Source: a virus | Taxonomy: Duplodnaviria; Caudoviricetes | Virus record (IMG/VR): IMGVR_UViG_3300017761_001785 | Span: 1 to 31,352 of that record | DNA: 31,352 bases | Strand: one strand, 5' to 3' | Part shown: piece after piece, positions 12,900 through 29,557 of the stretch | How positions within the stretch are numbered: the first letter of the stretch is position 1 | Layout of the letters: each line of letters opens with the position of its first letter | Translations under genes and position numbers: made by a program | The notes under the pieces: generated by a model | What the model saw: the letters and a program-made list of their open reading frames with translations, nothing else | Databases searched by the model: none | Told to the model about the DNA's origin: nothing

Positions 12900-12902
12900 T
12901 CT

Positions 12903-14744
12903 CTACCAATTACCTCTTAAGGTCAAGCGTTGTTTAAGTTCTTTGAAGCTCTCTTTGTTTTTACGTTTCTTTTCTTCTATTGCCTCCGATCCCGCCATGG
13001 CACCGAAAACTTTGCGAGCCACAAAGAGTCCAACAGAGAAAGAGTCAAACAAGTCAGGGGACTTGCCTATACGCTTCTTCATGTCTGTCTTGCTCTCGAT
13101 TATAATCTTCCGAGTCCTTCTCACATACTTTCGCTGAGTCATTTCCCATGCCAAATCCGGTGTTACTCCTTTGAGTTGCTCGCATTCTAAGAAGTAGCGG
13201 GAGACAAAGCACAACTCGCTAGACATGTTGTGGAACAATTCCTTGCCAACCTGCGGCTTTCCGGTGGCCTCGTTTCTTAATGCGTACTGGGCACTGACCG
13301 GAAGGTCTGAGGCTGCTCCTGCAAAACTCACTGCATGCCAACCCCTTAGAAGCTCCCTCTCTCCGATTGACCAGAAGATACCGCCTGCCGAAGCGTCCAC
13401 CCCCATCCATTGGTTGGGTATTCCCAGTTTGATGGATAGATCGTGGATTTGCTGGATCATCTCATACTGGAAGTCCTCTTGAGACCCCGCCCTCCGGTTG
13501 AGGACATACTGCTTCTCTAGGGCTATGGCCCACTTGCCCGAGATTAGCTTGCCCCATTTCATGTGGGTGAAGACAAAGCGGTCTCCTCCTTCTGTATAGC
13601 TAGGATCGATTCCGGCAATATCTTTCGGGGTTCCATCCCAGATTGGTTTATCCAAAGCCCCGTGACGGGCTAAGAGGATGTCCGAAACAACTGTACAATC
13701 ATCGGCGTCTGCTGGTGGCCAAAAGCCCCGAAACTTACGCCAGTACTGGGGATTGAGTTCCCCGAGTTCCTTTCTGGCTACAGCAACGTCATTGGGTTTG
13801 GGAAGGAATGGATAGCGAAGACCCTTACCCTTATCAAACGACTGTTGGTTGGGGTTGTCTTTTTCGGAGTCAAAGCGCAAGGCTAGTCCCTCAATACCTG
13901 CTACTTTGATTTTCCAGTTCGGGGTTTCCTCGTCCACGCTCATCCACCCCTTGATGGGTTCGCAGAATTTCCCGTGGGGATCAAAGATGGAGGATGGGTT
14001 GCCAGCACCAACAACGTGAAGCTCTTGCGCTCCCTTAAATCCCCAAAGAGCCTCGTTGATTACGGAAGACGAGCAGTCTTGTAACTCATCTATAATCAAC
14101 ACAATACGACGATTCTTCTTACCCTGAAGGCGTTTCTGAGCATCATCCTTGTACTCATCGCCAGCCGCAAGCAGCATGATTGAGGAAGCGTCACTAACGC
14201 CAATATTGGGATCGATGGCCTTACCCTCCTCATCTGAAAGCTTGATGATATCCATGGATTCAATGAGCCTTCCAGCCGCCACTCCAACAGCATGAGCCTC
14301 TCGGTACATCTTTACCAGTGCCGCCCAAATTCGTTGCTTTGCGTCGATCTTGCTGGTCGAAACCACAATAACCATCGTGTTGAGCGGGTCGACAAACCAG
14401 TTCACCAGTGCTAATGCGGCCATATCGTAAGACTTACCAGAGTCTGTGCCGCCAGCTAGACCAGTAACGCTTCGGACAAATTTGTTGCCTGTCTGAGTGT
14501 CCTCTTCGATGTTTACCTTGCAGAACGCCTGTGCCCGTAACTCAGCCCACTTGTGCCATGCATAAGTTGGCCAAATAGTAGACACTATATTCCGGTAGTG
14601 GGTCGCCTTGCCAAGCCCACCTTCTTCTTGGGTTAGTCCCAAAAGAAAGGCGTCCATTTCGATACGGAGAGGTGTAACAACAGCCCCGTTGCGAGGGGTC
14701 CATAGCCTTCCATATTTTTCTATCGCGCCGTCAGGTATTGCCAT
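12903..14744 (-). CDS. terL: Terminase large subunit
   Basis: Walker A GGTDSGKS, Walker B LIIDE, coupling motif GAGNP, nuclease motifs GIDPS..GGD and SPDLFDS. Confidence 0.93.
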   Translation of the reverse strand: MAIPDGAIEKYGRLWTPRNGAVVTPLRIEMDAFLLGLTQEEGGLGKATHYRNIVSTIWPTYAWHKWAELRAQAFCKVNIEEDTQTGNKFVRSVTGLAGGTDSGKSYDMAALALVNWFVDPLNTMVIVVSTSKIDAKQRIWAALVKMYREAHAVGVAAGRLIESMDIIKLSDEEGKAIDPNIGVSDASSIMLLAAGDEYKDDAQKRLQGKKNRRIVLIIDELQDCSSSVINEALWGFKGAQELHVVGAGNPSSIFDPHGKFCEPIKGWMSVDEETPNWKIKVAGIEGLALRFDSEKDNPNQQSFDKGKGLRYPFLPKPNDVAVARKELGELNPQYWRKFRGFWPPADADDCTVVSDILLARHGALDKPIWDGTPKDIAGIDPSYTEGGDRFVFTHMKWGKLISGKWAIALEKQYVLNRRAGSQEDFQYEMIQQIHDLSIKLGIPNQWMGVDASAGGIFWSIGERELLRGWHAVSFAGAASDLPVSAQYALRNEATGKPQVGKELFHNMSSELCFVSRYFLECEQLKGVTPDLAWEMTQRKYVRRTRKIIIESKTDMKKRIGKSPDLFDSFSVGLFVARKVFGAMAGSEAIEEKKRKNKESFKELKQRLTLRGNW

Positions 14745-14766
14745 TTACGATATTTCACTCTACATT
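14738..14766 (+). promoter_or_regulatory. Sigma70-type promoter for the tandem-HTH gene, probably giving a leaderless mRNA
   Basis: TTGCCA-N17-TACATT, 7 nt before the ATG at 14774; the -35 overlaps the terL start codon. Confidence 0.5.
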
Positions 14767-14773
14767 ATAACCC

Positions 14774-15529
14774 ATGGCAGCGCAACGAGATTGGTCAACT
14801 CCAGAAAATAGAATTAAAAAACAAAACGCCTTTAGGCTCTATGCCGCTGGACGAAAGATGGCGGATGTGATGGCAGCATTGGGTGTAACCTCTCCTCCTG
14901 TGGTTAAGAGATTTATCCACAGCGAGAAGTGGGACAAGCACAAGGAACTTTGGAACGCCGCCCCAAATGAAGAGCTTCACTATCCTTGGGAGGTTGAACA
15001 TGTCACCACCCTATCACTTCCCCCTGAGAAAATGGAAACGATGGAGAAAAATAAACGTCTTCAGTGCATCAAGGCATTTGCCATGTACTGCTCTGGGAGA
15101 TCAGTTAGCGATGTTGCTTTGGAGGTCGGGGTTAGCCACTCAACTATTGACCTTTGGAAGGATGCCCAGCGTTGGGACGCCTGTCGGGCAAGGTTGGTCA
15201 ACGAGTCGGCCCCAGCCCCTTGGGAAGATAGCGGGGTTCCCACACTAATCTCGGATATCACGGCATCGCTTGAGGCCATGAAGAAGTCGATCAAGTTCCT
15301 TACTGGCAAGGTGCTAATCAAGGCCGCAGACGCAGCCCAAGATCTTGACGGCATGGAGGCTCTCGGCATGATGAGGAACATCAAGCAATTGGCTGAAGCT
15401 GCCTCAATTAACTTCTCAGATGGAAGCAACCAACAAAACGCCATTCAGATCAACATTGCCTCCAAGTTGGAATCCATTAAAATTCCGAACAACACAACCT
15501 TTGAAGCGGAACTAGTAGTCAATGAGTGA
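14774..15529 (+). CDS. Tandem-HTH protein, probable terminase small subunit
   Basis: Two repeats of AF.(L/M)Y..G..(M/V).DV...(L/V)GV....W resembling the P2 gpP/Terminase_5-type HTH, followed by a helical region; adjacent to terL. Confidence 0.6.
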   Translation: MAAQRDWSTPENRIKKQNAFRLYAAGRKMADVMAALGVTSPPVVKRFIHSEKWDKHKELWNAAPNEELHYPWEVEHVTTLSLPPEKMETMEKNKRLQCIKAFAMYCSGRSVSDVALEVGVSHSTIDLWKDAQRWDACRARLVNESAPAPWEDSGVPTLISDITASLEAMKKSIKFLTGKVLIKAADAAQDLDGMEALGMMRNIKQLAEAASINFSDGSNQQNAIQINIASKLESIKIPNNTTFEAELVVNE

Positions 15530-16112
15530 GGAACCTAAATTTTGTTACTCACGAAAAACAGACGGCCCTTGGGGTGGATGGTGGGTGACTTGGGAGAACC
15601 AACGGGTTGATGGCGGTGATTGGTCTGATATGGTTGATAACTGCAACAAATTGACAGTTAGCCTCGGGAAAGTTCCTCCACCTGATCTTTCACGGCAAAT
15701 CGAACACGCCCTTTGTTCAAGGATGGCGGGTAACCCCAATTGTGTCCCTTGCTCCAAAGCAAAACAAACCCTTGGATTCGGGGCTATTGTTCGTTGGGTC
15801 AGGGCAATGTATCAGTTTGCCAAGGACAACAAGTTTGAACTAGTGCCCCAAGAGGAAGCGGAGCGCAGGGCGGAGATCTGCGCGAAATGCCCTATGCAAA
15901 TTCCCACCTCCGGTTGCTGGGGATGCAAGGGTATTGCGGGGCTTCTCCCCCAAATTGCTGGCGCGAAAACTACCAGCTTTGATCTTCAACTGAGCGCCTG
16001 TGGAGTTTGCGGGTGCTACAATGCCGTGAGCGTTCATCTTCCCCTGAGTGTGCAGCAAGACGCTAGTCTTGATTTCCCCAGCCATTGTTGGAAGCAATCT
16101 CAAATCGGGTAA
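15522..16112 (+). CDS. Cys-rich putative metal-binding protein (DUF6171-like motif)
   Basis: RRAEICAKCP..CWGC..CGVCGC..PSHCW; overlaps the end of the upstream gene. Confidence 0.6.
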   Translation: MSEEPKFCYSRKTDGPWGGWWVTWENQRVDGGDWSDMVDNCNKLTVSLGKVPPPDLSRQIEHALCSRMAGNPNCVPCSKAKQTLGFGAIVRWVRAMYQFAKDNKFELVPQEEAERRAEICAKCPMQIPTSGCWGCKGIAGLLPQIAGAKTTSFDLQLSACGVCGCYNAVSVHLPLSVQQDASLDFPSHCWKQSQIG

Positions 16113-17406
16113 CGGCCTTGTTAAAACTCATTGGGGCAATACCCGTGGGACCCTCGCGGTGCTTGGCCACGATAAATTCCACGGTTGGGATTTGGGTATG
16201 GCTCTTGGCGTCCTCTTCATCGCAGTGAAGAATCATCACCATGTCGGCGTCCTGCTCAATAGCTCCAGATCCCTTGAGGTCTGAAAGGCTTGGCCTTCCC
16301 CCTCTTTTTTCGGGGTCGCGGTTGAGTTGAGCGAGAACCAAAACTGGCACCTTCAGAGTCTTGGCTAGTTCCTTGATACCACCACTGATCTCCTCGACCT
16401 CATTGACTCGGTTATCTTTGGCCCTTTTACTGTCTCCCTTGAGAAGCTGGAGGTAGTCAATGATGATCAAGTCAATCGGCTCTTTCTGGTGGGCTCTACG
16501 GGCAATGGACTTGATGTATCCCATAGACTTACCAGAGGTGTCATCGCACAAGATGTTGGAATCCCGAACCTCCTCGTAAGCCTTGCCTAGTGATTGTTTC
16601 TGGTACGGAGTAATAGACTGAGCAAGGATATCGGCAGCGCGGACTCTTGCTCGACTACGAATCATTCTCTCCATTAGGGCAACGCTGGTCATCTCAAGCG
16701 AGAACATCAGCACCCTTTTCTTTAAGTCCAAGGCCACATGTTCGGCAATCTGCATGGCCGCACTGGTCTTGCCAACTGCTGGTCTTGCGGCGAGAACCAC
16801 CATGTCTCCACCGCGCATACCAAACATGAGAAGATCATCCACCGGAACCAGACCTGTGCGGATGCCGATCTTGGGCTCCCCCCTCATGGTGGACTCAATG
16901 TTGTCTAAGGCCCTCTCCACAACTCCCTTGATCGATAGCTGGTCCGTATTGTCTATCATATAATCCGCCTTCATTACACTGGTCTCTGACCAGTTCTTGA
17001 GTTCCTCAAGCTTTAGATCCCGATCCCGCGCCTTGCATATCATGTCGGAGGCTAGGTATTCCAAACTCCTACGGTAGCGAGCCTCTTCCAACTTGGGATA
17101 GTAACGCTTCCAGTTGTGGGCGTTGGGACAGAAGGAGGCAATCTCCGTCAACACATCATCCCCGCCAACTTCTTCTAGCTGCTTGTTGCCCTCAAGCTCG
17201 TTCTTGATATTGATGTAGTCCGCATGGATGCCGCGACCAATGGTCCTTAAAACAGAGTTGAAGATGATCTTGTGTTCATGGACAAAGAAGTGGTCTTCCC
17301 TGATCGTTGAAATGATTTCCTTTTGGTCTTCTACTGCCCCGTGGAAGAGACAGGATAGGATGGCGGTTTCTGCTGACTGTTCGTAGATTACTTGTTCTGC
17401 TTGCAT
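16063..17406 (-). CDS. dnaB: Replicative DNA helicase DnaB
   Basis: AETAIL N-domain, LAARPAVGKT, FSLEM, IDYLQL, AQLNR, RPSLSDLKGSGAIEQDAD, KHREGPTG. Confidence 0.97.
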   Translation of the reverse strand: MQAEQVIYEQSAETAILSCLFHGAVEDQKEIISTIREDHFFVHEHKIIFNSVLRTIGRGIHADYINIKNELEGNKQLEEVGGDDVLTEIASFCPNAHNWKRYYPKLEEARYRRSLEYLASDMICKARDRDLKLEELKNWSETSVMKADYMIDNTDQLSIKGVVERALDNIESTMRGEPKIGIRTGLVPVDDLLMFGMRGGDMVVLAARPAVGKTSAAMQIAEHVALDLKKRVLMFSLEMTSVALMERMIRSRARVRAADILAQSITPYQKQSLGKAYEEVRDSNILCDDTSGKSMGYIKSIARRAHQKEPIDLIIIDYLQLLKGDSKRAKDNRVNEVEEISGGIKELAKTLKVPVLVLAQLNRDPEKRGGRPSLSDLKGSGAIEQDADMVMILHCDEEDAKSHTQIPTVEFIVAKHREGPTGIAPMSFNKAVTRFEIASNNGWGNQD

Positions 17407-18359
17407 TGTGGTTTCTTTTTCTTTCGGGATTTCTTTGGCTTGCCCAAGGTTTTACCTAGTGATCTCAGGCTGGCCAAAAACTTTTCCGATTCGGTTTTGT
17501 TTTCGCTGGCCACAAAGGTGACCTTCGATTGTAGGGGTTGGACAACGATTTCTTCCGGTTGTTCAATCTCCACATAAACAGGAGGGACATATTTATCGTA
17601 GATCATCCGGTGAAGAGACCCGTCCTTGCAACCGTGGACCACAACGGCCTTGGGGCTTACGGTGCGGTCTGGGCAGGTAACATTCTGAACATCTTGAGCT
17701 TCAGCGTTTTCGGCAAAAAAGACAATGGACTCTCCCCTGAGTTGGTAGTTGCAACTCTTCCAGTAGGCTCTGATCAGCGGCGTGTCTCGTCCATACTGAA
17801 GGAATTCCCAGCGGCAACGCACATCCCAAGGCTCGGGAGCAATGGCCTTGTCCTTGAAGTAGATGTTGTAGTTGTAAAGATTGGCCGCAATCCTGCACCC
17901 ATTGAGAAATTTTGACGGATAAACAGCACTCCCGACAATGAGTTGATACATAATCTTACCACTCGGAGCCACCCCGCCCTCAATAAAGCATCCCATGATC
18001 TTGCCCGTATTCTTGTTGAACTCTTCTTCCAGCCTGTCAACCCAGCCTTCAACCATCGGGACACAATCCGGCTCCCAAAAGTACCAAGGGTCTTCGTATT
18101 GGTAGCAATGGGAGGATGCATCCGCAAACATTTGATTGGGACCAAGGGGCCATCCATTGAATCCGTCTTGAGCGATAATCTTACCAACCTCTGGGAATAC
18201 CTTCTTTAGCTCTTCCGTAATTTGCGGAAGTAGCGGGGTTCCCTCAGTGCAGCATACTGTGGCCTTGTGGCGGATGTTTACACCCTGCTCCACAATAGCC
18301 TTGGCACTTTCCAAGGCCAACTCACAGTCTCCACTATGGTAGGCAAAGACGATGTTCAT
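17388..18359 (-). CDS. GT-A-fold glycosyltransferase-like protein
   Basis: WYFWEPDCVP..GWVDRL (DxD-like motif after a beta strand), GSAVY, WD, VVVHG; basic low-complexity tail. Confidence 0.5.
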   Translation of the reverse strand: MNIVFAYHSGDCELALESAKAIVEQGVNIRHKATVCCTEGTPLLPQITEELKKVFPEVGKIIAQDGFNGWPLGPNQMFADASSHCYQYEDPWYFWEPDCVPMVEGWVDRLEEEFNKNTGKIMGCFIEGGVAPSGKIMYQLIVGSAVYPSKFLNGCRIAANLYNYNIYFKDKAIAPEPWDVRCRWEFLQYGRDTPLIRAYWKSCNYQLRGESIVFFAENAEAQDVQNVTCPDRTVSPKAVVVHGCKDGSLHRMIYDKYVPPVYVEIEQPEEIVVQPLQSKVTFVASENKTESEKFLASLRSLGKTLGKPKKSRKKKKPQCKQNK

Positions 18360-18542
18360 CTAAACCTCCTGCAAATCAAAGTTAAGGGGCCAAGATGGGT
18401 GGTGGGGGTCTTCGGCTCTTACCCTTACGTTGATGCGCCCCTGACCGATCAACTTGTTGGCCTCCAAGGTTGCGTCTTCTTTGGTCATGGAACCCTTGTG
18501 GAATTCCACAACAGCATCTCCGTAGCATACTAGGAACGTCAT
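18360..18542 (-). CDS. Hypothetical protein
   Basis: 60 aa; abuts neighbours on the same strand. Confidence 0.65.
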   Translation of the reverse strand: MTFLVCYGDAVVEFHKGSMTKEDATLEANKLIGQGRINVRVRAEDPHHPSWPLNFDLQEV

Positions 18543-18547
18543 ATTAT

Positions 18548-18775
18548 TTATTTCTTTCTTTTTTTGGTTTCCGCTTGTGCGGCGTATTTGGTAAAAAATT
18601 CAGCGCAGTCTCTGGCCATATCGACTTCGGCCACAGGGTCGAAGAAATAGCCGCCACGCTCAAGGTGGATCGCTTCCATTGGGAGGGGGGAACCTCTGCG
18701 GAATCGTGGGCCAACCACGAATGGGGTGACGGAGTCTTCATTGATTACAGTAAGGACTACTTTGAATTTGGGCAT
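18548..18775 (-). CDS. Hypothetical protein (start MPKFKVV)
   Basis: 75 aa; tiles the operon. Confidence 0.6.
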   Translation of the reverse strand: MPKFKVVLTVINEDSVTPFVVGPRFRRGSPLPMEAIHLERGGYFFDPVAEVDMARDCAEFFTKYAAQAETKKRKK

Positions 18776-18948
18776 TGGGGATACTCCATCCAATACTCAA
18801 TCATGGGCTCAAGTATGTGAGCGGTCCTGCTCCACCCATGGTTTGGATAAAAATAGGCAGCATCCCGATAGGGAGGGTTTGCGCTGGGAGAGCAGATGAG
18901 GTAAATTCCCTCACGCTCTGGTTTCTCTTCTTTGTAGTTCTTCCACAT
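18757..18948 (-). CDS. DUF551-like small protein (start revised to MWKNY)
   Basis: W...EEKP..EG.YL ... W ... YWM..P..P pattern; ATG 6 nt after an ECF-type -10. Confidence 0.6.
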   Translation of the reverse strand: MWKNYKEEKPEREGIYLICSPSANPPYRDAAYFYPNHGWSRTAHILEPMIEYWMEYPQCPNSK

Positions 18949-18954
18949 AGATAC

Positions 18955-18983
18955 ATAGACAGCAAATGCCGGATTTCGTTCAA
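18955..18983 (-). promoter_or_regulatory. ECF/sigmaE-type promoter, copy 1
   Basis: TTGAAC-N17-GTCTAT, 6 nt to the ATG at 18948. Confidence 0.75.
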
Positions 18984-19372
18984 TGAAAAAATCACCTTTA
19001 AAACGCCGAACCCCACTTAAAAGTAAAAGCAGGTTGCGGAATGCATCCACCAAACGCCAACGTGAGTACAAGGAGTATACACAGGTTCGCAATGCCTACC
19101 TCGCTCTCCACCCGATATGCCAGAGATGCAAGGAGTCCAAGGCGACAGACATCCATCACAAAGCCGGAAGGGTCGGTAAGTGGCTGTGCCTTACGGAGTA
19201 CTTTGCCGCGCTTTGTCGATCCTGCCACAATGCCGTCCATGAGAACGGAATTGAGGCCCGTAAGCAAGGGTGGATTATTGATACATTTCATGCTCTTCAA
19301 GATCCCGATAAAGTTTCTCCCCAAGGTCAGGCTCATAGTCCTGAACAAGAGGATTCCAAATCTTCTCTTTAG
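18983..19372 (+). CDS. HNH endonuclease
   Basis: Basic N-terminus (KKSPLKRRTPLK), CQRC, DIHH, LCRSCH..VH. Confidence 0.85.
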   Translation: MKKSPLKRRTPLKSKSRLRNASTKRQREYKEYTQVRNAYLALHPICQRCKESKATDIHHKAGRVGKWLCLTEYFAALCRSCHNAVHENGIEARKQGWIIDTFHALQDPDKVSPQGQAHSPEQEDSKSSL

Positions 19373-19544
19373 GCGCGGTTAGGTTGCGGTAGTTGTCCAC
19401 CGCATTGACCCAGCTAAACTCCAAGGGCTGATTCCACTCCCTTGCTTCGGGAAAATTCCAAGGATAGGGCCTTGGATAGGAAACACAACCACTTGTAACA
19501 AGTAGTGCGATTCTTATCCACGCTCTTTGAATTCGTAGAACCAT
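19275..19544 (-). CDS. Possible small lipoprotein
   Basis: RAWIRIALLVTSGC lipobox-like segment; overlaps the 3' end of the HNH gene convergently. Confidence 0.45.
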   Translation of the reverse strand: MVLRIQRAWIRIALLVTSGCVSYPRPYPWNFPEAREWNQPLEFSWVNAVDNYRNLTAPKEKIWNPLVQDYEPDLGEKLYRDLEEHEMYQ

Positions 19545-20161
19545 AGCTCTTCGTCGCTTTCACTAACCCAGCGGCTTCCTGTATCCTCGCAACTAAACTC
19601 CTGACTGAATACCTTCCAGTCGGGCTTTGCCGGAAAGGACTTGGCGATAAACGATCCGCCGTCCAGCCAAAGGACTCGGTTGTTGGGTTGGATAAAGAAC
19701 TGCCCATCTCCCTTAAATACATGGCCGCACTTGTGACCAGCAGCCAGTTCCCCGTAGCCCGATTGATACTGTGGTCCAAGGCACCAGTCCAAGGTAAACA
19801 TGTATTGGGCTTTGTGCAGGGTGCGGTCTTTAAGCATGATATTCGCCGCACGATTCTTGCAGTAGTCGATAATTCCCGAAGAGCAGTAGTAGCTCATGGT
19901 ATCCCAAAGCTGTATCCAGTCCAAGGGATAGCTCGTTCCTCCGGTTTCATCTGTATGCAGGTAATGGATTGGAACTCTTGCGTGTTGGCTGCCGTATTCG
20001 GTCATCACGCTGAATAGTCCACAGCGTTGCGGGATGGAGGTGTAGTTGAATACCTCAACCACAATCCTTTCGTTGTCTACGTTGGCTTCAGTATCGTACA
20101 AAAATCCCGTATCCAAAAAGGCAAAGAAGACGGGGATGTTGACGTTGAGATAGTTACTCAT
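19514..20161 (-). CDS. Conserved phage protein of unknown function (start MSNYLNVNIP)
   Basis: 215 aa; YLN.NIP, PIH, QLWD..SY, YMFT.DW, HKC.H and QPNNR motifs recalled from a widespread aquatic-phage family. Confidence 0.75.
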   Translation of the reverse strand: MSNYLNVNIPVFFAFLDTGFLYDTEANVDNERIVVEVFNYTSIPQRCGLFSVMTEYGSQHARVPIHYLHTDETGGTSYPLDWIQLWDTMSYYCSSGIIDYCKNRAANIMLKDRTLHKAQYMFTLDWCLGPQYQSGYGELAAGHKCGHVFKGDGQFFIQPNNRVLWLDGGSFIAKSFPAKPDWKVFSQEFSCEDTGSRWVSESDEELWFYEFKERG

Positions 20162-20432
20162 TGGCAATCTTTCGTAGTAGTTCGGTCTGCTTGCGAAGCT
20201 CATAGGTCTGCCTACGCATCTCTCCTTCTTGTCTCATGGCGTCGATAGAGGCACTCATCTCCGCAGAGATTCGATCATAGTTCGCCATGCGCTCACGATG
20301 GTCTTGGTCTCGGTCAATTGTTTGGCCTTGGAATGTCTGGATGCGTCCACTGTCCAAGTCCACAATGGTTCCGTTGAACTGCTGGCCATAGCTTACGCTG
20401 GCCCCGATTACTGCTAGTAGTATGTATTTCAT
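20154..20432 (-). CDS. Small secreted protein (start revised to MKYILL)
   Basis: 92 aa; MKYILLAVIGASVSYG-QQ signal-peptide-like segment, then a helical region. Confidence 0.65.
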   Translation of the reverse strand: MKYILLAVIGASVSYGQQFNGTIVDLDSGRIQTFQGQTIDRDQDHRERMANYDRISAEMSASIDAMRQEGEMRRQTYELRKQTELLRKIANE

Positions 20433-20597
20433 AAAAAGATTTAGGAGCGGGGTGGCGCACCAACGACAATTCCCCCGAATCGTTGCTGGTTCCGCATTTG
20501 CATGACGGGTCGCCCCGCTCCCAAAAGAGGTGGTAGGACTCAGGTCGCTGCGTCTAGATATCTCCAGCCGCCCCTCAATGATCCCACCATTAGTCAT
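20433..20597 (-). ncRNA. Structured leader or small RNA (long hairpin plus three-way junction)
   Basis: 8-bp stem 20582-20589/20531-20538; 9-bp stem 20513-20521/20444-20452 enclosing a GCAA-capped hairpin and a 13-position hairpin; begins right after an ECF-type promoter. Confidence 0.55.
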
Positions 20598-20603
20598 GGT
20601 TTA

Positions 20604-20632
20604 ATAGACACCATGGATGCGGGTTTGTTCAA
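20604..20632 (-). promoter_or_regulatory. ECF/sigmaE-type promoter, copy 2
   Basis: TTGAAC-N17-GTCTAT. Confidence 0.75.
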
Positions 20633-20639
20633 TCTTTTT

Positions 20640-21091
20640 TTATGGGTTTATGGCGATTGTGTTACTAGGCGGGGCTGGGGCCAGTCGCCCCGCCGTTATC
20701 AGCGGCTCTATTGGCTTGAACCCCGAAACGCCGCTCCATTGGATTAATAATTCCTATGGGCTAGATCCTGCCGAATGACTACACCTCGCCCCCGCAGGGG
20801 CAAAGGCATAGTCAAATTTGGATTCTCATTCCTCTTGGGTGAGTCCTCCGCTTTATTCCACAGACTGCGATCTAGGCTCCGAAGCCGCTCTTAGACCTTC
20901 AAACAACCGCAATCAACCTCCGAGGGTATTATCCCTCGCGCTTACCAGAGTTCCTCTGGATTCCCATGCCGCAATGTGTTCAGGCGATGGGACGGATGGC
21001 TGGCTGCGAGTGCGGCGGTTTTACCCTTGCATACCTCGTCACAGGTTCTAGTGGCGTATGTCTCGTCCACTTTACGACTGTCCTTCCAGAC
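20640..21091 (-). ncRNA. Large multi-stem non-coding RNA candidate (~450 nt)
   Basis: At least nine helices found by eye; tandem G-U pairs and a C-UGCG-G tetraloop work only on the minus strand; has its own promoter; no credible ORF. Confidence 0.6.
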
Positions 21092-21097
21092 AATCGC

Positions 21098-21126
21098 AGG
21101 CTACGATACGTTCAAAATTAAGTCAA
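21098..21126 (-). promoter_or_regulatory. Sigma70-type promoter for the large RNA
   Basis: TTGACT-N17-TAGCCT; overlapping near-ECF element TTGAAC-N18-GTCTGG. Confidence 0.6.
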
Positions 21127-21207
21127 GAAAAGAAAGAGGGTGCGGCTCCGAAGCGAAGTCTGGAAGACAGCCGCAACAAAATGGAACCGCACCCAGATAC
21201 AAGGATC
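21125..21207 (-). ncRNA. Small RNA candidate (~80 nt) ending in a stem and U-rich tail
   Basis: 12-bp stem GGGTGCGGTTCC/GGAGCCGCACCC (21138-21194) followed by TCTTTCTTTTCTT; its loop is complementary to 21074-21097. Confidence 0.55.
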
Positions 21208-21212
21208 GTCAC

Positions 21213-21241
21213 AGAGTAACGCCAGTGTTGCAGAGTGTCAA
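21213..21241 (-). promoter_or_regulatory. Sigma70-type promoter for the small RNA
   Basis: TTGACA-N17-TACTCT with an AT-rich upstream segment. Confidence 0.7.
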
Positions 21242-21261
21242 CAAGAGAGTAAAATTATTTA

Positions 21262-21531
21262 GTGGATAAAGAATCTTACAGAGCCTACTTGAAAACTCCT
21301 TATTGGAAGGACGTAAGCCGACTAGTCAAGAAACGCTACGGCTGGAGGTGCGGGGTGTGTAATAGCCCCCTAGAACTCCAAGCCCACCACCGCACCTACG
21401 AGCATAAGGGGGACGAGCTAAACCACCTTGATGACCTGATCTGCCTGTGCAAGGTCTGCCACAAACTTTTCCACAGGGAGCAGAAAAAGAAAGCGCGACC
21501 CCCAAGGAGACCGCGCCAAAAGAAGGGTTGA
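21262..21531 (+). CDS. HNH endonuclease
   Basis: Y..YL.TPYW..., RCGVC, AHHRTY, DLICLCKVCH..FH; GTG start. Confidence 0.88.
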   Translation: MDKESYRAYLKTPYWKDVSRLVKKRYGWRCGVCNSPLELQAHHRTYEHKGDELNHLDDLICLCKVCHKLFHREQKKKARPPRRPRQKKG

Positions 21532-21537
21532 CGAAGA

Positions 21538-21566
21538 TTGAACGCGAGTTAGGTTTGTTGGTCAAT
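21538..21566 (+). promoter_or_regulatory. ECF/sigmaE-type promoter, copy 3
   Basis: TTGAAC-N17-GTCAAT, 9 nt to the ATG at 21576. Confidence 0.75.
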
Positions 21567-21575
21567 ACACATCCT

Positions 21576-21887
21576 ATGATTGATACAACTATCCTGCCAT
21601 CCGAAGTTCAACAAAATCCCGAAATCACCATTGGTGAACTAGCCGACAAGCACAATGCCAACTATCCTGCCATGGCGGCAGCATTGCGAAAGAGCGGGAT
21701 TCGGGCCAAACGGAAAAAAACCACCAAGAGGCGTTTGTCCAATGGGAGCAGATCCTTTAAGATTCTTGGCTACCTCATGGCCAATCCCGAAATAAACCTC
21801 ACCGTTATTGCCGAGCAATTCAATTGCACTAGGGAGTATGTGAGCCAGATCGACGCCACTGCCCGTGAAGAAGGGATCATTAAATGA
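21576..21887 (+). CDS. Double-HTH DNA-binding protein (start revised to MIDTT)
   Basis: 103 aa; NPEITIGELADKH and NPEINLTVIAEQFNCTREYVSQI HTH-like repeats joined by a basic linker. Confidence 0.7.
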   Translation: MIDTTILPSEVQQNPEITIGELADKHNANYPAMAAALRKSGIRAKRKKTTKRRLSNGSRSFKILGYLMANPEINLTVIAEQFNCTREYVSQIDATAREEGIIK

Positions 21888-22180
21888 GTACCATGACTGT
21901 AGGTTGCATACAAACGACTGTAAATCCCCCACTTACCAGCGGGATTTATGAAGCCCTGCTGGAGAAGGCGGAACGTGAACTCGATGAAGCGCGAAAGGAA
22001 AAAGAAAAGTGGGGCTTATATGCCGAGAGAGTAGAACGGGAGCGCGACCACTACAAGGAGTCCATTGAAGAGATCTCAGTTACCATCCAAGACTGGTTGG
22101 ACTCCATTGTGCAGGAACCCAGCCTAGACTTTATCCGCGCCATTAAGGCTTGGGCGGATAAGAAGTTGAACAATGGATAG
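21884..22180 (+). CDS. Coiled-coil hypothetical protein
   Basis: 98 aa; ERELDEAR/ERERD repeats; ATGA overlap. Confidence 0.7.
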   Translation: MSTMTVGCIQTTVNPPLTSGIYEALLEKAERELDEARKEKEKWGLYAERVERERDHYKESIEEISVTIQDWLDSIVQEPSLDFIRAIKAWADKKLNNG

Positions 22181-22183
22181 CCA

Positions 22184-22570
22184 ATGGGAACAGCTATTCC
22201 GGCAGGATATGTGGAGGTAAGAAAAGGAGTCTATGAAAGAATTGACGTTATCCAAAGAGCCTTTCTTGATCGTAAGAGTCCCGTCCGTAACCCCAAGCCT
22301 AAACGCCCTGTTCTCAATGAACCACTGGCAAAGGGCAACGGCAAAAAAGAAGATACAGGCCGCATTCATATCCGCCTTACGGCAAGAAGAAAACGACTTA
22401 TTGACCCCGACAATCTCATTTTCAAATACCACATTGACTGCCTCCGCTATGCTGGAGCGATTCCAGATGACCGTGAAGGCGATGTCACAATCGAAACTCA
22501 CCAAGAAAAAACTCGCGGGCAAGAAGAGACGCTGATAGAGTTGTTCCGCCATGGAACAATGGGAATTTGA
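22184..22570 (+). CDS. rusA: RusA-like Holliday junction resolvase, catalytic half
   Basis: DPDNL..K..IDCL..AGAIPDD matches the RusA DxDN-K-D-G-DD pattern. Confidence 0.7.
   Translation: MGTAIPAGYVEVRKGVYERIDVIQRAFLDRKSPVRNPKPKRPVLNEPLAKGNGKKEDTGRIHIRLTARRKRLIDPDNLIFKYHIDCLRYAGAIPDDREGDVTIETHQEKTRGQEETLIELFRHGTMGI
22233..22535 (+). CDS. Overlapping ORF encoding a RusA-like N-terminal segment
   Basis: AAGGAG Shine-Dalgarno 3 nt before the ATG; VPSVTPSLNALFSMNHWQRATAKKK resembles the PSLN..HW..R..K start of RusA-like proteins. Confidence 0.6.
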   Translation: MKELTLSKEPFLIVRVPSVTPSLNALFSMNHWQRATAKKKIQAAFISALRQEENDLLTPTISFSNTTLTASAMLERFQMTVKAMSQSKLTKKKLAGKKRR

Positions 22571-22709
22571 TGCTGATCTTAAAATAAAATACGATGATAC
22601 GGGATTCTTGATGAGTTTCCCCGAAGACACCGTTGGCTATCAAGACAACCCCATCCGCAGATTGTTTGAACAGATTAAAGAAATTGATGTCGAAGATGGT
22701 GAGGAGTAG
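22551..22709 (+). CDS. Small acidic protein, 52 aa (not in ORF track)
   Basis: MEQWEFDADLKIKY...EDGEE; fills the gap. Confidence 0.55.
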   Translation: MEQWEFDADLKIKYDDTGFLMSFPEDTVGYQDNPIRRLFEQIKEIDVEDGEE

Positions 22710-22718
22710 CCTCACACA

Positions 22719-23291
22719 ATGGATCAAGCCACCATCAATTTTCTCGGGAGAGCCATTCTGCGCTACCGTCAGTTTAAGCTGACCTTTGTTCCGCAGAAGT
22801 ATTTGATTACGGGCAAGGCCACCTCTGTAGGATGGGCCAATGATTGCGAACTACGGATTGCCACCAAACGCCCTCCCTCTACTTGGGTGGATGTGTTTGT
22901 CCATGAGACATGCCACCTCGACCAACAATTGCAGAGACCCACTTGGCACGAACACAAGGAGGAGGCCCTTAGAAAGCTCGACCATTGGTTAGAGGGCAAG
23001 CGGGTAGACCATATCGAAAACCACATCCGCAGCGTCATTGAACTGGAGTGGGATTGTGAACGAAGGAGCGTGAGGAAAATTGCTCGCAACAAGTTGCCAG
23101 TAAACCTGAAGACCTACGCCCAAATGGCCAATGCCTATATACTAGGATACCACTGGACCCTAAAGAATCGCAAGTGGTGTAAGAAGACCTATGAAACAAC
23201 CTACATCTGGACAAGGATGCCCGAAAAAATCATCCCCCTTAAAACAGCACTGTTCCCCCCAGACAAACTTATCAAGCTATTCTATGAGTAA
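22719..23291 (+). CDS. HExxH zincin-like metallopeptidase-fold protein
   Basis: VFVHETCHLDQ with downstream ELEWDCE. Confidence 0.6.
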   Translation: MDQATINFLGRAILRYRQFKLTFVPQKYLITGKATSVGWANDCELRIATKRPPSTWVDVFVHETCHLDQQLQRPTWHEHKEEALRKLDHWLEGKRVDHIENHIRSVIELEWDCERRSVRKIARNKLPVNLKTYAQMANAYILGYHWTLKNRKWCKKTYETTYIWTRMPEKIIPLKTALFPPDKLIKLFYE

Positions 23292-23541
23292 TACCACCTG
23301 TTCTTCATGCATGGAACTTGCCGCCATCCACGAATGCCTTAAAGATTACGCTATTTATGATGGGGAACCCCCGCTTTTGTCCCTGTCGATGCTTATATCC
23401 GAAGTAAAGATGTGGAGGTCAAAGGACGAGTACGATAAGAAGTTGAAGGTTGTCATGGGTAACGCTATTCTTAAACAAATAAACGGAGACGATGAAGATG
23501 ATGGAAATGAAGTGGCAGGCCAGATTTTTGGCCTTAACTAA
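23284..23541 (+). CDS. Hypothetical protein (start MSNTTC)
   Basis: 85 aa; CxxC near the N-terminus; overlaps the upstream stop. Confidence 0.55.
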   Translation: MSNTTCSSCMELAAIHECLKDYAIYDGEPPLLSLSMLISEVKMWRSKDEYDKKLKVVMGNAILKQINGDDEDDGNEVAGQIFGLN

Positions 23542-23935
23542 AGAAATTGCAAGCTGGAGTAAGGATCTCGGGACCAAGGTCGGTGCTGTTATTGTCCGAC
23601 CAGACCGCACCATTTGCTCTGTGGGATTCAACGGGTTCCCCCGTGGGATAGAGGACAACCCCTATGCTATCGCAAATCGCGATACCAAGCTGCTTCGCAC
23701 CATCCACGCCGAACTCAACGCCATACTCTCGGCCAAGGAGCCACTCAATGGATATTCGATCTTTGTCTGGCCCTTCCAGCCATGTAGCCAGTGTGCGGCG
23801 GCTATTATCCAGAGCGGGATCAAGGATGTCTACTGTCCCTTTCTTTGCCACTCATCCAATGACCGCTGGAGCGAGTCGTTTAAGGCTGCGCTGCAAATGC
23901 TTGATGAGGCGGATGTTAGAGTTATTTACTCTTGA
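23492..23935 (+). CDS. dCMP deaminase
   Basis: SKD..TKVGAVI, GFNGFP, HAE.NA, PC..C zinc motifs; the true start may be a few codons downstream. Confidence 0.93.
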   Translation: MKMMEMKWQARFLALTKEIASWSKDLGTKVGAVIVRPDRTICSVGFNGFPRGIEDNPYAIANRDTKLLRTIHAELNAILSAKEPLNGYSIFVWPFQPCSQCAAAIIQSGIKDVYCPFLCHSSNDRWSESFKAALQMLDEADVRVIYS

Positions 23936-23937
23936 CA

Positions 23938-23966
23938 TTGAACGAATCGGTGGGTTACTTGTCTAT
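23938..23966 (+). promoter_or_regulatory. ECF/sigmaE-type promoter, copy 4
   Basis: TTGAAC-N17-GTCTAT, 7 nt to the ATG at 23974. Confidence 0.75.
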
Positions 23967-23973
23967 ATTAACC

Positions 23974-24186
23974 ATGAGCAGCAATGGAATGACCAAGGTC
24001 CTTGAGGGTATCTCAAATTGGAAGGAGTACTCCCGCTTTGAGAACCAAGAAGAAGGATACATCACCCAAGAAAGGGTTGGTGAGGGTTTGACTTTCTTTC
24101 TTTGGAGGGTTGACAAGGAACCTGTGCCGCTTGACTTTACCTACATCGATGGAACAACCTTTGTCCGGTTCCGGTCCATCCACTAA
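23974..24186 (+). CDS. Hypothetical protein (start MSSNG)
   Basis: 70 aa directly after the promoter. Confidence 0.6.
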   Translation: MSSNGMTKVLEGISNWKEYSRFENQEEGYITQERVGEGLTFFLWRVDKEPVPLDFTYIDGTTFVRFRSIH

Positions 24187-24190
24187 TTTT

Positions 24191-24424
24191 ATGAGCGAAC
24201 AAGAACAACCTAACGAAACAAAAGTTAACGAAGCGATGACGGAACGGGTAAACAAAGCCCTTGAAGCATCTGACTACACCTTTCTCATGGGCTCCAGCGA
24301 CCATGTAGTAATGATTAGCGCGGGAGAAGAAAACAACAAGGTTGACATCTTGATGACCCTTGAGTCCATGGAAGAGGCTGTGGCCACACTTCGCTCCCAA
24401 GCAGACGAAGAGAAACCCCAATGA
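24191..24424 (+). CDS. Acidic hypothetical protein (start MSEQE)
   Basis: 77 aa; tiles the operon. Confidence 0.65.
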   Translation: MSEQEQPNETKVNEAMTERVNKALEASDYTFLMGSSDHVVMISAGEENNKVDILMTLESMEEAVATLRSQADEEKPQ

Positions 24425-24732
24425 AGCCCTTTGTTTACGATGCAAGGGTTGGCGAGGTTGGGCAAGTCGCCTTCTACAAAGACCTTAAAACATCCACCTA
24501 CTGTTTCTACTTCTACAATGGGAAAGAATACACCCCTCTCTACTTGTCTGAAGAAGCAGCTTACTATGTGTGGATGTTTATCGGGTACGAGCATCCAGAA
24601 GCCACTACCACCCCAAGGGTAGCCATGGCGTTGGGTGCTTTAAAAAAGAATTTTGCTTCGGCTAAGAAGGCTGGTCGAAGTAAACAAACCAAGCGGCCTT
24701 CATTAACAAAAAAGAAAGCGAAAAGTAAATGA
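24421..24732 (+). CDS. Hypothetical protein with basic tail
   Basis: 103 aa; ATGA overlaps at both ends. Confidence 0.7.
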   Translation: MKPFVYDARVGEVGQVAFYKDLKTSTYCFYFYNGKEYTPLYLSEEAAYYVWMFIGYEHPEATTTPRVAMALGALKKNFASAKKAGRSKQTKRPSLTKKKAKSK

Positions 24733-24959
24733 GCATCAACGAAAAGAAAGACAACAGCGGAGCGGCGTTTGTCCGCGAATCAGACAACCCCAAGGCCCCG
24801 AAGTACAGTGGTCCCGCCACTATCGGGGGTAAGGACTACGAAGTCTCAATCTGGCAGCAGACTAGCCAGAAGGGGGTTAAGTATCTTAGCCTGAAGTTCG
24901 GGGCACCCTATGTCCCGAAGGAAAAGAAACAAGAGGTCAACGAAGACCCCGAATGGTAA
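24729..24959 (+). CDS. DUF736-like putative ssDNA-binding protein
   Basis: DNSGAAF..PKYSG..IGG..Y.VSIW..G.KYLSL with an acidic-aromatic tail (EDPEW). Confidence 0.6.
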   Translation: MSINEKKDNSGAAFVRESDNPKAPKYSGPATIGGKDYEVSIWQQTSQKGVKYLSLKFGAPYVPKEKKQEVNEDPEW

Positions 24960-24965
24960 AATAAG

Positions 24966-25112
24966 TTGGGCTTCATCGGCATAGCCATTTGTACGGTTTG
25001 CTATATTGCAACCTCAGTTGATTTTTACATCAAGGGGAATATCCCCATGGCTATCGCCTTTGGAGGCTACTCAATAGCTAACATCGGATTTTTAATAATC
25101 GCAAGACAATGA
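24966..25112 (+). CDS. Small membrane protein, 48 aa (TTG start, not in ORF track)
   Basis: GFIGIAICTVCYIATSVDFYIKGNIPMAIAFGGYSIANIGFLII; two hydrophobic segments. Confidence 0.6.
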   Translation: MGFIGIAICTVCYIATSVDFYIKGNIPMAIAFGGYSIANIGFLIIARQ

Positions 25113-25204
25113 AACTTTGCACCTACGTTATGGCTGTTGGATTCTCCCTAATCATTTGGACATTAGTCACCATCGGTATGGTGGTTATGCTACAGAAGTG
25201 GTAG
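25109..25204 (+). CDS. Single-TM microprotein, 31 aa
   Basis: MKLCTYVMAVGFSLIIWTLVTIGMVVMLQKW; ATGA overlap. Confidence 0.6.
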   Translation: MKLCTYVMAVGFSLIIWTLVTIGMVVMLQKW

Positions 25205-25287
25205 ACAATCTTACGGCCTGCATATTCTGGCTAATCATTCTGGTGGTTTCTCTGAAGTTCCTTAAAGACATATTTGGACCACGATGA
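25198..25287 (+). CDS. Single-TM microprotein, 29 aa (GTG start)
   Basis: VDNLTACIFWLIILVVSLKFLKDIFGPR; its stop overlaps the next ATG. Confidence 0.5.
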   Translation: MVDNLTACIFWLIILVVSLKFLKDIFGPR

Positions 25288-25460
25288 AGAATAAGCTAGA
25301 GAACTGGATAGCCAACCGCCATGAAGACGAGCTTGCTGTAATGAACCTGCTCCAAGAATGGGGAGTCGTTAGCGACACCATCCTCTGGGCCAAGGACTGC
25401 GGCAACGACACCAAGGCCATGGTATGGATGGCTTGCAACACACACCTACTGCCTAAATGA
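25284..25460 (+). CDS. Hypothetical protein, 58 aa
   Basis: MKNKLENWIA..MNLLQEWGVVSD..; ATGA overlaps at both ends. Confidence 0.65.
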   Translation: MKNKLENWIANRHEDELAVMNLLQEWGVVSDTILWAKDCGNDTKAMVWMACNTHLLPK

Positions 25461-25573
25461 TTATTGTAGAAACATTTCTTAATTTGGTGGGCTACGGAGT
25501 AGTGGCTAACATTGGCTTTGCCTTTGTCTTTTGTTTCTCTCGCTTTAGGAAGCTCAATCGTTCACTCAAATAA
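25457..25573 (+). CDS. Single-TM microprotein, 38 aa
   Basis: MIIVETFLNLVGYGVVANIGFAFVFCFSRFRKLNRSLK; hydrophobic segment then basic tail. Confidence 0.6.
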   Translation: MIIVETFLNLVGYGVVANIGFAFVFCFSRFRKLNRSLK

Positions 25574-25576
25574 AGT

Positions 25577-25605
25577 TTGAACGAAAGCGCGAACTAAGGG
25601 TCTAT
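25577..25605 (+). promoter_or_regulatory. ECF/sigmaE-type promoter, copy 5
   Basis: TTGAAC-N17-GTCTAT, 6 nt to the ATG at 25612. Confidence 0.75.
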
Positions 25606-25611
25606 ACTTCT

Positions 25612-26085
25612 ATGAGCCTAGACATCGCCACTCCCAAGGGGCAGGTAAGCTTGCAAGACGAACAAATAGTGGCGCGTTGGTTCAATCGTAAAGAGGACCA
25701 CTTCTACCTCCAAACCCCGAAAGATAGTCCCGCCAAGGTGGATGCTATTCTCACAAGGGGAGAGGAGATCATTGGTCTTGCCGAAACCAAGTGTCGTTAC
25801 AACATAACCCTCCAAGACTTCCGCCACAAGTTCCACAACGAGTGGTTGGTTACTTGGGAGAAGTTGGAGTCGGGGTTGAAAATGGCAGAGCAACTCTGCG
25901 TTCCTCTCTATGGATTCCTGTATCTGGTAGATGATGATGTATTGTTAATAGCAAACCTAAGTAAGGCGGAGATACGCCGAGAGTTCACCGAAACCCAGAA
26001 GACGATCAATGGGGGAAAGATTGTCAGGGAGAATGGATTCATCCCCATGAAGGGGGCACTAGTAAAGCACACCATCAGTAAATAA
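25612..26085 (+). CDS. PD-(D/E)xK nuclease-fold protein
   Basis: E...AKVDAIL...GLAETKCR (D...ExK). Confidence 0.65.
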   Translation: MSLDIATPKGQVSLQDEQIVARWFNRKEDHFYLQTPKDSPAKVDAILTRGEEIIGLAETKCRYNITLQDFRHKFHNEWLVTWEKLESGLKMAEQLCVPLYGFLYLVDDDVLLIANLSKAEIRREFTETQKTINGGKIVRENGFIPMKGALVKHTISK

Positions 26086-26090
26086 ATTTT

Positions 26091-26216
26091 ATGGCAGGCA
26101 AAGGAAGCAAACCAAGGAAAGTAAATGGCCCGAAGTATCGAGACAACTTTGACAACATCAAATGGGGCAAAGGCCCGAAACCACACAATGAAAACAATAA
26201 AAAGACCCAAGCTTGA
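26091..26216 (+). CDS. Small basic phage protein, 41 aa (not in ORF track)
   Basis: MAGKGSKPRKVNGPKYRDNFDNIKW; GKGSKPR..N(F/W)D.I motif recalled from many phages. Confidence 0.65.
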   Translation: MAGKGSKPRKVNGPKYRDNFDNIKWGKGPKPHNENNKKTQA

Positions 26217-26781
26217 AAACTTAGATAACTACAAATGCGATAAACATTGCGACAGGCTTGAATATCCCTGCTCCCATTCTAAGGGCCGAGCAAAAGCTTA
26301 CCGTAATAACGTTGCTGTAAATCAAGCAACCGAGCTAAAAGCCATAGATCAAATAGAAGAGACGAGTTATGGTGTTTGGCTGGTGTGCAATAAGTGGTAT
26401 TTTCACCCAAACTCTAAACTTGCAAGACCAAAAGGACAACGCTCACGATATCAGAAATTCAAGAACTTCACCACATTCTGGAAGTTTATCCACGATAAGG
26501 GCAAAAATCCCCAATGGAAGATTAACAGGGAATTTAATCTGACCGAAGAAGATAAGCCAATTAATCGCAAAAAGCTGTTAACAGATGAAGATGTAATGCC
26601 ATTTGGTAAATACAGAGGAAAACAACTTAAACACGTTCCATACAGTTATTTTATGTTTTTGTGGAAAATGTTTGGCTTTTCCAATTTCAAAAAATATCGT
26701 GGGAAGGCTGGATATGTGGCAGAATACATAGAACGCCTTATAAAAAATAAACAACCTTGCACAAACCCCGAATCAATATGA
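26188..26781 (+). CDS. Basic protein with a C-terminal DUF3820-like motif (start revised to MKTIKRP)
   Basis: VMPFGKYRGKQLKHVPYSY motif; visibly AT-rich. Confidence 0.65.
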   Translation: MKTIKRPKLENLDNYKCDKHCDRLEYPCSHSKGRAKAYRNNVAVNQATELKAIDQIEETSYGVWLVCNKWYFHPNSKLARPKGQRSRYQKFKNFTTFWKFIHDKGKNPQWKINREFNLTEEDKPINRKKLLTDEDVMPFGKYRGKQLKHVPYSYFMFLWKMFGFSNFKKYRGKAGYVAEYIERLIKNKQPCTNPESI

Positions 26782-26957
26782 ACCTAAAAAAACTACTAAG
26801 TAAGGGCCACCTCATTCCGATCTACAACCCCGTGGATGGCAACTTGTGCATCGTGGGGTATCAACGCAAGCCCACCAGCAGAAAAGCCTCCCAGAGACCC
26901 TTTCTGCTCCCGCAACCCATCATCTTGGGCCCCTTGACCCCAAACCCCGAAACCTAA
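26778..26957 (+). CDS. Hypothetical protein (start MNLKK)
   Basis: 59 aa; ATGA overlap upstream, TAATG overlap downstream. Confidence 0.6.
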   Translation: MNLKKLLSKGHLIPIYNPVDGNLCIVGYQRKPTSRKASQRPFLLPQPIILGPLTPNPET

Positions 26958-27229
26958 TGAAACCCACAGGCCACGAACTAATAGACCAAGAGATAGGCAA
27001 ACAACTAGGAGAAGACGAAACAGTACTTCTAGCAGACGGGCTAGAGTCGGCATTTCTAGGTATAGGCCGACAGTTCTCCCATGCGGTAGCAATTTACTCG
27101 TACAAGAAGACGATTAAGAACCTGATGCGTCAGGGTATGGACAGGGAAGAGGCAATTGAATATTTTGACTTTAACATAGCAGGAGCCTTTGTCGGAGACC
27201 AAACCCCAGTATTCCTAGCAGACGAATAA
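26957..27229 (+). CDS. Conserved small phage protein (start MKPTG)
   Basis: 90 aa; ADG...A.LG...AIY...GM.REEA.EYFDFN..GA.VG..TPVF pattern recalled from aquatic phages. Confidence 0.75.
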   Translation: MKPTGHELIDQEIGKQLGEDETVLLADGLESAFLGIGRQFSHAVAIYSYKKTIKNLMRQGMDREEAIEYFDFNIAGAFVGDQTPVFLADE

Positions 27230-27316
27230 GCAACGTGTCGATAAAACCCCGAAATATATACACATTAGTAGATACATGTATACGGCGTAGACATATCTGT
27301 GGTATAAGGATCTCTT

Positions 27317-29478: not shown

Positions 29479-29557
29479 TAGGACATACCATGTCTCACCC
29501 CTAAAAATGGGTGGGGTAGGACATATCATGTCCGAGGGTATAGGACATATCGTGTCC
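29479..29557. repeat. Three 17-bp palindromic direct repeats (operator-like)
   Basis: TAGGACATACCATGTCT 29479-29495, TAGGACATATCATGTCC 29517-29533, TAGGACATATCGTGTCC 29541-29557. Confidence 0.9.

Follow-up and report, generated by a model that had tools for sequence, protein, structure and literature searches.

Two RNAs encoded side by side on one strand of a tailed-phage genome form a new and well-supported family, in which a large RNA of ~350 nt has a covarying structure and a small RNA just upstream is its covarying partner. Among relatives, the loop of the small RNA (RNA I) and the 5' end of the large RNA (RNA II) change together and stay complementary, the structure of RNA II is conserved, and the cassette is exchanged with one carrying a replication initiator gene by family annotation. 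With modest confidence, we favor the reading that the cassette is a ColE1-like RNA-based origin, in which RNA II would activate the origin while hybridized to its template. RNA I, encoded on the same strand without overlapping RNA II, would be a dispensable antisense inhibitor and would set the specificity groups. The replication function proposed for RNA II rests on the exchange in this slot. An earlier sequence-only reading of this DNA had proposed a same-strand antisense regulator and target with ColE1-like logic, and the group covariation, the promoter and terminator signatures, and the swap with the initiator all support that proposal.

Genomic setting and relatives

The window, meaning the whole stretch of 31,352 nt that was analyzed, is a 31-kb piece of a tailed phage in which terminase and DnaB are encoded leftward on the minus strand and small early-type genes lie on the plus strand rightward of the RNA locus. 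The locus is a gene-free stretch where the two transcription directions diverge, and it is housed in a phage of ~70 kb with its own DnaB and primase. The nearest cultured TerL is only 28% identical to that of the window phage, and comparisons of TerL and of an HTH protein gave no host clue. The 54 pattern matches to the large RNA in bacterial and archaeal genomes included no real homolog (the best reached 20 bits over 38 nt) and thus offered no prophage or host lead. The RNA region had no blastn match among 50,697 cultured phages, ARAGORN found no genes in the window, and searches of the open-access literature, which leave most subscription journals outside their coverage, returned no description of the element.

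Relatives were gathered in four sets: 34 loci anchored on the neighboring HNH gene; 43 viral contigs carrying the core pattern of the large RNA; 38 matches from a metagenome scan, of which 7 were chance matches, one (L246) was apparently the window's own record, and 30 looked to be of the same phage family; and the best 80 of 178 loci anchored on a neighboring gene.

The small RNA and its promoter

The predicted sigma70-type promoter of the small RNA, P1 (21213..21241, minus strand), reads TTGACA-17-TACTCT and overlaps a divergent plus-strand promoter region. It is the first of two tandem minus-strand sigma70 promoters that the sequence-only reading had placed here. Both motifs are present where it put them and relatives keep their signatures, but a consensus promoter scan of the window lists neither, and each -10 element matches at only three of six positions. 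At P1, the pattern TTGAC-16/17-TAnnnT is retained in three spacer alleles.

RNA I itself (21128..21206, minus strand; predicted length ~78 nt) has the 12-bp stem and U-rich tail described from the sequence, with 21194-21183 pairing to 21149-21138 around a 33-nt loop, followed by a U-rich terminator tail at 21137-21127. Its fold has a z-score of -4.9, and the consensus stem comprises 12 pairs over 22 variants, with compensating double changes at 2 pairs. The loop (21150..21182, minus strand) is hypervariable and confers the predicted specificity, its segment 21174-21158 pairing with the 5' end of the large RNA. RNA I is present in 30 of the 43 core-pattern contigs, absent from 12, and cut short in one, so that 12 of 42 informative contigs lack it. 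No clear candidate partner was found elsewhere in three records (G003, G008 and G009, all long but incomplete). Together, these two observations suggest that RNA I behaves as a dispensable regulator, as would be expected of a brake.

Some further alleles bear description. In L059, a close relative of the window in the DnaB tree, P1, the small RNA and the HNH gene have all disappeared, and the 5' end of its large RNA still pairs with the loops of its group at -32.5; it may be a natural brake-less derivative. In some alleles, such as L066, a tRNA-like gene with a CAT anticodon, assigned by eye, precedes the small RNA, which may thus be processed from a longer transcript there. A tRNA-like gene at L035:3693-3767 has a weak tRNA-clan match.

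Promoters and structure of the large RNA

The second predicted sigma70-type promoter, P2 (21098..21126, minus strand; TTGACT-17-TAGCCT), has a predicted +1 near 21091. Of 37 distinct variants, 35 keep TAnnnT at the same position, with 18 nt of inner spacing and six bases 5' of a conserved GTC. This arrangement supports a putative separate start of the large RNA at ~21091, and we infer that RNA I and RNA II are two separate transcripts.

A second promoter motif, TTGAAC-N18-GTC (21086..21115, minus strand), is nested within this region and shares the conserved GTC downstream of P2. In L037 and L044, variants of P2 without a sigma70 -10 element keep the nested motif and are found without the small RNA. 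If used, the nested promoter would start a shorter RNA ~10 nt further in, without the first pairing helix. The general form TTGAAC-N17/18-GTC, which resembles ECF-sigma promoters, occurs 9 times in the window (1.7 expected), and five related genomes have 11-13 copies apiece. Copies of TTGAAC-N17-GTC on the coding strand lie at 17566, 18983, 20632 and 21115 (minus) and at 21538, 22666, 23938 and 25577 (plus). A phage sigma factor was considered as the protein recognizing this class, and none of the five genomes had a candidate over the cut-off; the class may point to a host ECF sigma factor and could aid host identification.

The core of RNA II (20735..21091, minus strand; ~350 nt) has a fold z-score of -3.8 for the window sequence and carries invariant loops. 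A 67-pair model, which was drawn from the window sequence together with the RNAalifold result and is thereby at an advantage over slid controls, is paired in 91.9% of cells across 24 sequences, with double changes at 28 of the 67 pairs, and was equaled by none of 500 shuffles. RNAalifold itself gave 45 pairs, 22 of them with double changes. Two pseudoknots are possible; they are short long-range pairings of invariant bases and hence lie beyond covariation. Rfam 15, applied to the window, five loci and an 891-bp region, returned nothing near the gathering score.

Behind the core lie variable hairpins and an A-tract (20633..20734, minus strand), with the hairpins missing in some alleles. A U-tract terminator (a GC run followed by U4) is absent behind the core in all 35 variants. 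No AT-rich zone is conserved there across all alleles, a point against the origin reading. This segment is a candidate RNA-to-DNA transition or unwinding zone. Within the core, five contigs (L007, L008, L014, L017 and L058) carry insertions of ~60-100 nt in one stem-loop (window-equivalent 20947-20957), marking it as a tolerant peripheral helix whose insertions leave the core undisturbed. In two RNA-type runs (X1 and X2), compared with window positions 11400-31352, the only full-length matches among the contigs listed (215 and 151 nt) lie within RNA II, a weak hint that RNA II is expressed; the contigs of these runs hold 0.10 and 0.05 of the words and leave the small RNA uncovered, and gaps in them prove nothing.

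Complementarity of loop and target in relatives

The hypervariable target segment of the large RNA (21066..21091, minus strand) was delimited with a matrix of cognate and non-cognate duplexes. In the window, loop positions 21174-21158 pair with 21091-21074 in a duplex of 17 bp with one bulge and two G-U pairs, exactly as had been noted from the sequence; four more pairs noted just upstream fall before the predicted +1 and are not retained in relatives. Taken alone, the window duplex is only moderately rare: one of 2000 shuffled targets reached the same energy, and the real target, at -31.3, was matched by an unrelated site in the window near 24400 (-31.5). It is the covariation in relatives, not rarity in the window, that settles the point, and the complementarity is real.

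From allele to allele, the sequence changes completely in the loop and over the initial ~25 nt of the large RNA, between conserved flanks. Of the distinct allele pairs, 35 of 36 form duplexes of 17-23 bp at -26.5 to -35.7 kcal/mol, and the sole weak pair is that of L255 (-16.5 kcal/mol). One further small-RNA allele (L253/L266) was left out of the 36. Mean duplex energy over these pairs was -30.2 kcal/mol for cognate and -14.7 kcal/mol for other-group combinations, and the best partner fell within the own group for 32 of 36, although alleles within a group are related and the independent evidence is therefore the 9 strongly pairing groups rather than the 36 pairs. When one pair per group was permuted, none of 200,000 permutations reached the cognate sum. 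For the 5' ends of the L037, L039, L044 and L070 types, no known loop gave a duplex stronger than -20.7.

The duplexes share several features. They are predicted to begin at or beside the conserved GTC, the longest unbroken helix is 9-12 bp in all 35 strong pairs, and every allele has a bulge. As anticipated from the two G-U pairs of the window, 19 of 21 pairs form a better duplex on the minus strand than on the plus strand. The broken helices and this strand bias are more in line with pairing between RNAs than with an inverted repeat in the DNA. In most cofolds with RNA I, RNA II keeps its first hairpin intact; the cofolding ddG values (-0.9 to -12.3) were not used because a loop duplex with a closed stem cannot be modeled. 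Lock and key lie within ~130 bp and appear on different large-RNA cores, which would let a new specificity group be transferred as one unit.

The initiator cassette in the same slot

The slot that holds the two RNAs lies between the leftward promoter motif P3 and the HNH gene. In seven RNA-less loci, it holds instead a gene of ~180 aa that matches phrog_4707, annotated as a replication initiation protein (E 1.4e-13), as well as DnaD-like families and annotated initiators of cultured phages. Solved structures yielded no match to its product, and the label comes from family annotation. All 11 distinct full-length copies of the gene contain iteron-like repeats spaced 15-17 nt apart beside an AT-rich stretch, with at least three repeat alleles. 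Such a layout of repeats and AT-rich DNA is that of an origin located inside a phage initiator gene.

The two cassettes exclude one another in the loci sampled. The census anchored on a neighboring gene, in the best 80 of 178 loci, found 33 RNA loci, 13 initiator loci and none with both. Among 35 loci spanning the slot, 25 held the large RNA and 10 the initiator, with none holding both or neither and no third kind of cassette. Neither the initiator nor either of two initiator families was matched in three RNA-type genomes (G001-G003, 91-100% complete), and the same three queries recovered the initiator in both control genomes (G004 and G005). RNA-type G002 and initiator-type G004 are syntenic, and most of their shared proteins are 70-97% identical. 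On a DnaB tree, where the label 'RNA1' includes loci cut by contig ends and only the contrast of RNA with initiator was used, the two types interleave, and some RNA/initiator pairs have identical DnaB. The RNA and initiator cassettes are therefore exchanged as modules.

G002 encodes DnaB, a primase, SSB, a resolvase and an exonuclease, and a scan of its 98 proteins found no match to initiator, integrase, ParA, repressor or polymerase families. A plasmid-like state in need of copy control thus lacks support. A 323-aa gene preceding DnaB was considered as an initiator and set aside, its atlas neighbors being hypothetical or glycosyltransferase-like. In one 2.4-kb metagenome contig (L255), the large RNA is next to an HNH fusion of an initiator-like HTH (L255:1273-1896, plus strand) that lacks the repeat region, which counts against reading the cassette as an RNA-only origin; this contig may be an intermediate, or its HTH may have another role. 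An extra initiator-like HTH copy, also without a repeat region, precedes the full initiator in L035 (L035:2066-2410, plus strand). Cumulative GC skew was uninformative, with no turn at the slot in either G002 or G004, and the AT-skew minima at the slot coincide with the transcription divergence point. In initiator-type loci, the leader of the initiator gene (for example L030:2200-2390, plus strand) forms a long hairpin ending at the start codon, with a large loop complementary to upstream segments in 8 of 9 leader variants and with two covarying alleles. The protein cassette may therefore also be RNA-gated.

On the other flank, the small HNH gene (21262..21531, plus strand) is a neighbor outside the RNA module with patchy co-occurrence. 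It lies beside the RNA in 24 of the 43 core-pattern contigs and is missing from 14, with 5 cut short (14 of 38 informative contigs lack it). L063, L066 and L067 keep both RNAs without HNH, and the seven initiator-type loci have HNH without either RNA. Guide or scaffold RNAs of the HEARO and omega types are HNH-associated; the obligate linkage that would mark the present RNAs as such is not seen, and the RNA-nuclease link once suggested from the nearby HNH genes is not supported.

P3 and the leader of the leftward operon

P3 (20604..20632, minus strand; TTGAAC-N17-GTCTAT) is the promoter motif of the leftward operon and is present with both cassette types. It is followed in both by a small motif at 20531-20590 (minus strand) made of a stem, a conserved CATTGAGGG, a variable hairpin and a conserved AGCGACCTGA. 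This motif had no Rfam match and looks kink-turn-like. A second hairpin follows at 20440-20525. Given these two elements, ORF 20154-20597 probably starts at a later ATG near 20432. Five contigs (L024, L039, L050, L057 and L255) carry, just 3' of P3, an element of ~70 nt that resembles a tmRNA reduced to its tRNA-like ends, with a short hairpin linking them. Rfam left the element unmatched in L024 and L039, and it is possibly a mimic or decoy. In G002, the homolog of window gene 19514-20203 (G002:C1:33246-34883) encodes 545 aa and contains an insertion, possibly an intein, that has matches to portions of the ribonucleotide reductase and terminase families.

Comparison with known systems

In ColE1, RNA II forms a persistent hybrid that is cut by RNase H and extended by Pol I. 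The phage cassette resembles ColE1 in having a long non-coding RNA of similar scale with a small RNA acting on its 5' end, in an allele-specific incompatibility logic, here seen in computed duplexes, and in having no encoded protein initiator in any of three RNA-type records, L255 being exception-like. It shows no sequence kinship to plasmid origins, as judged by blastn of the RNA region against 72,556 plasmids, which gave no match, and by Rfam. ColE1 RNA I is ~110 nt long, fully complementary to RNA II and overlapping with it (PMC5043065). The phage RNA I, by contrast, is upstream, on the same strand and non-overlapping, pairs over a bulged ~20 nt, and is lost in some lineages. The setting differs too, the host of the element being a tailed phage of ~70 kb that encodes DnaB and primase itself, and its priming role would be by analogy.

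The MRB plasmids of Vibrionaceae offer a second comparison. As described for pB1067, these have a Rep-less origin of ~500 bp with a ~68-nt negative regulator and a ~465-nt RNA II, related origins are compatible through loop differences, and RNA I is encoded on the opposite strand, fully complementary, with two stem-loops (PMC3035462). The same paper, from 2010, names only ColE1 and MRB as RNA-initiated replicons, both with opposite-strand overlapping antisense RNAs (PMC3035462). The phage cassette shares with MRB the missing Rep, the small negative regulator with a long RNA II, and the loop-based specificity, which in the phage is an allele-specific recognition given by the computed duplex matrix. 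It differs in that its RNA I is same-strand, with one stem and a large loop. If the replication reading holds, the phage cassette works like ColE1 and MRB, yet is a member of neither.

The CI RNA of phage P4 is processed from the transcript that it controls, which it terminates upstream of protein genes (PMC4825925). Like CI with its seqA and seqC targets, the phage small RNA is on the same strand as its target and would control replication functions. Unlike in the CI system, a promoter is predicted for each of the two phage RNAs, and RNA I would act on a structured RNA of ~350 nt. The separate promoter signatures and the lack of a U-tract terminator downstream tell against processing and termination of the P4 type, as far as intrinsic termination goes. 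GOLLD, ROOL, OLE and HEARO are large structured RNAs of phages and bacteria held in Rfam. RNA II is like them a large, covarying, multi-helix RNA in a phage, and unlike them it has no Rfam 15 match, has a covarying small partner RNA, and is exchanged with an initiator gene.

Proposed mechanism and alternatives

In the mechanism that we favor, the two-RNA cassette takes the place of the initiator gene and origin-like repeats of sister phages. Host RNA polymerase would make RNA II from P2, and this terminator-less transcript would form an R-loop at which the phage DnaB and primase load. RNA I would accumulate from P1, pair over about 20 nt in two short helices and misfold the nascent RNA II. The block would be allele-specific, limiting the firing of the phage's own origin and that of co-infecting genomes of the same group, and exclusion within groups would drive the hypervariability of loop and target. 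Transcription from the nested promoter would yield an RNA II with a shortened 5' end, partly beyond the reach of RNA I. The purpose of such a brake may be the timing of origin firing and the exclusion of co-infecting kin. The invariant loops of RNA II could equally serve protein binding or catalysis instead.

The most serious competitor, which we nonetheless think unlikely, is that RNA II is an attenuator or antiterminator of the leftward operon, switched by RNA I in the manner of P4 CI, with the specificity groups being immunity groups. RNA II does point into the DnaB/terminase/structural operon without a terminator of its own, a hairpin of the initiator cassette likewise has a big loop that could pair with the leader of that cassette, and the same-strand target and imperfect pairing resemble CI and seqC (PMC4825925). 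However, P3 gives the operon an independent promoter whichever cassette is present, which weakens this reading, and phages of the initiator type express this operon although they have no RNA II. Directly 3' of RNA II there is neither a terminator nor an ORF, and the replacement of an initiator with origin-like repeats by an RNA would be left unexplained.

It is improbable, in our estimation, that the small RNA is instead an activating or structural partner in a two-piece RNA, licensing the RNA II of its own genome and no other. The stable duplex of ~20 bp, its strict group specificity, and the intact first hairpin in most cofolds would suit such a partner. An obligate two-piece RNA, which had been raised as the alternative to antisense control, is disfavored by the 12 of 42 informative contigs that have the large RNA without the hairpin, by the failure of a clear partner in trans to emerge from the three long incomplete records, and by the four 5'-end types (L037, L039, L044 and L070) that pair with no known loop beyond -20.7. 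We give equally little credence to RNA II being unrelated to replication, as a ribozyme, protein scaffold or decoy, with the slot an exchange hotspot at the operon divergence. The invariant unpaired motifs and possible pseudoknots, the position of the slot at the transcription divergence point, and the presence of both elements in L255 agree with it, but none of the 35 slots is empty or holds a third kind of cassette, and the 91-100% complete RNA-type genomes show no other initiator.

Inverted repeats can homogenize through template switching, and HNH 21262 is adjacent in 24 of 43 contigs, but that the RNAs guide or serve this nuclease, or that the complementarity is a DNA-level inverted repeat, is very improbable and largely refuted by distribution, given the loci with either HNH or the RNAs but not both, the one-strand G-U bias, the bulge in every allele, and the flanking promoter and terminator signals.

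Returning to the RNA-based origin, we entertain, without going so far as to favor it, a bolder formulation: that the cassette is a third, independently evolved RNA-only replication initiator and the first in a tailed phage, in which a pseudoknotted RNA of ~350 nt is freely interchangeable with an initiator protein and the origin that goes with it, a small RNA encoded separately acts as the gate, a ~130-bp lock and key makes up at least nine exclusion groups among co-infecting phages, and a nested promoter would free a form insensitive to RNA I.

Implications

Even if the replication reading were to fail, the locus would still define a new structured RNA family with a covarying partner. If the reading is true, these phages present a natural swap of protein for RNA at one essential step among near-identical genomes. 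The RNA pair could also be a source of orthogonal RNA switches. The specificity groups, at least nine in number, would then show how same-strand antisense pairs diversify, and the phages might exclude their kin at the level of replication.
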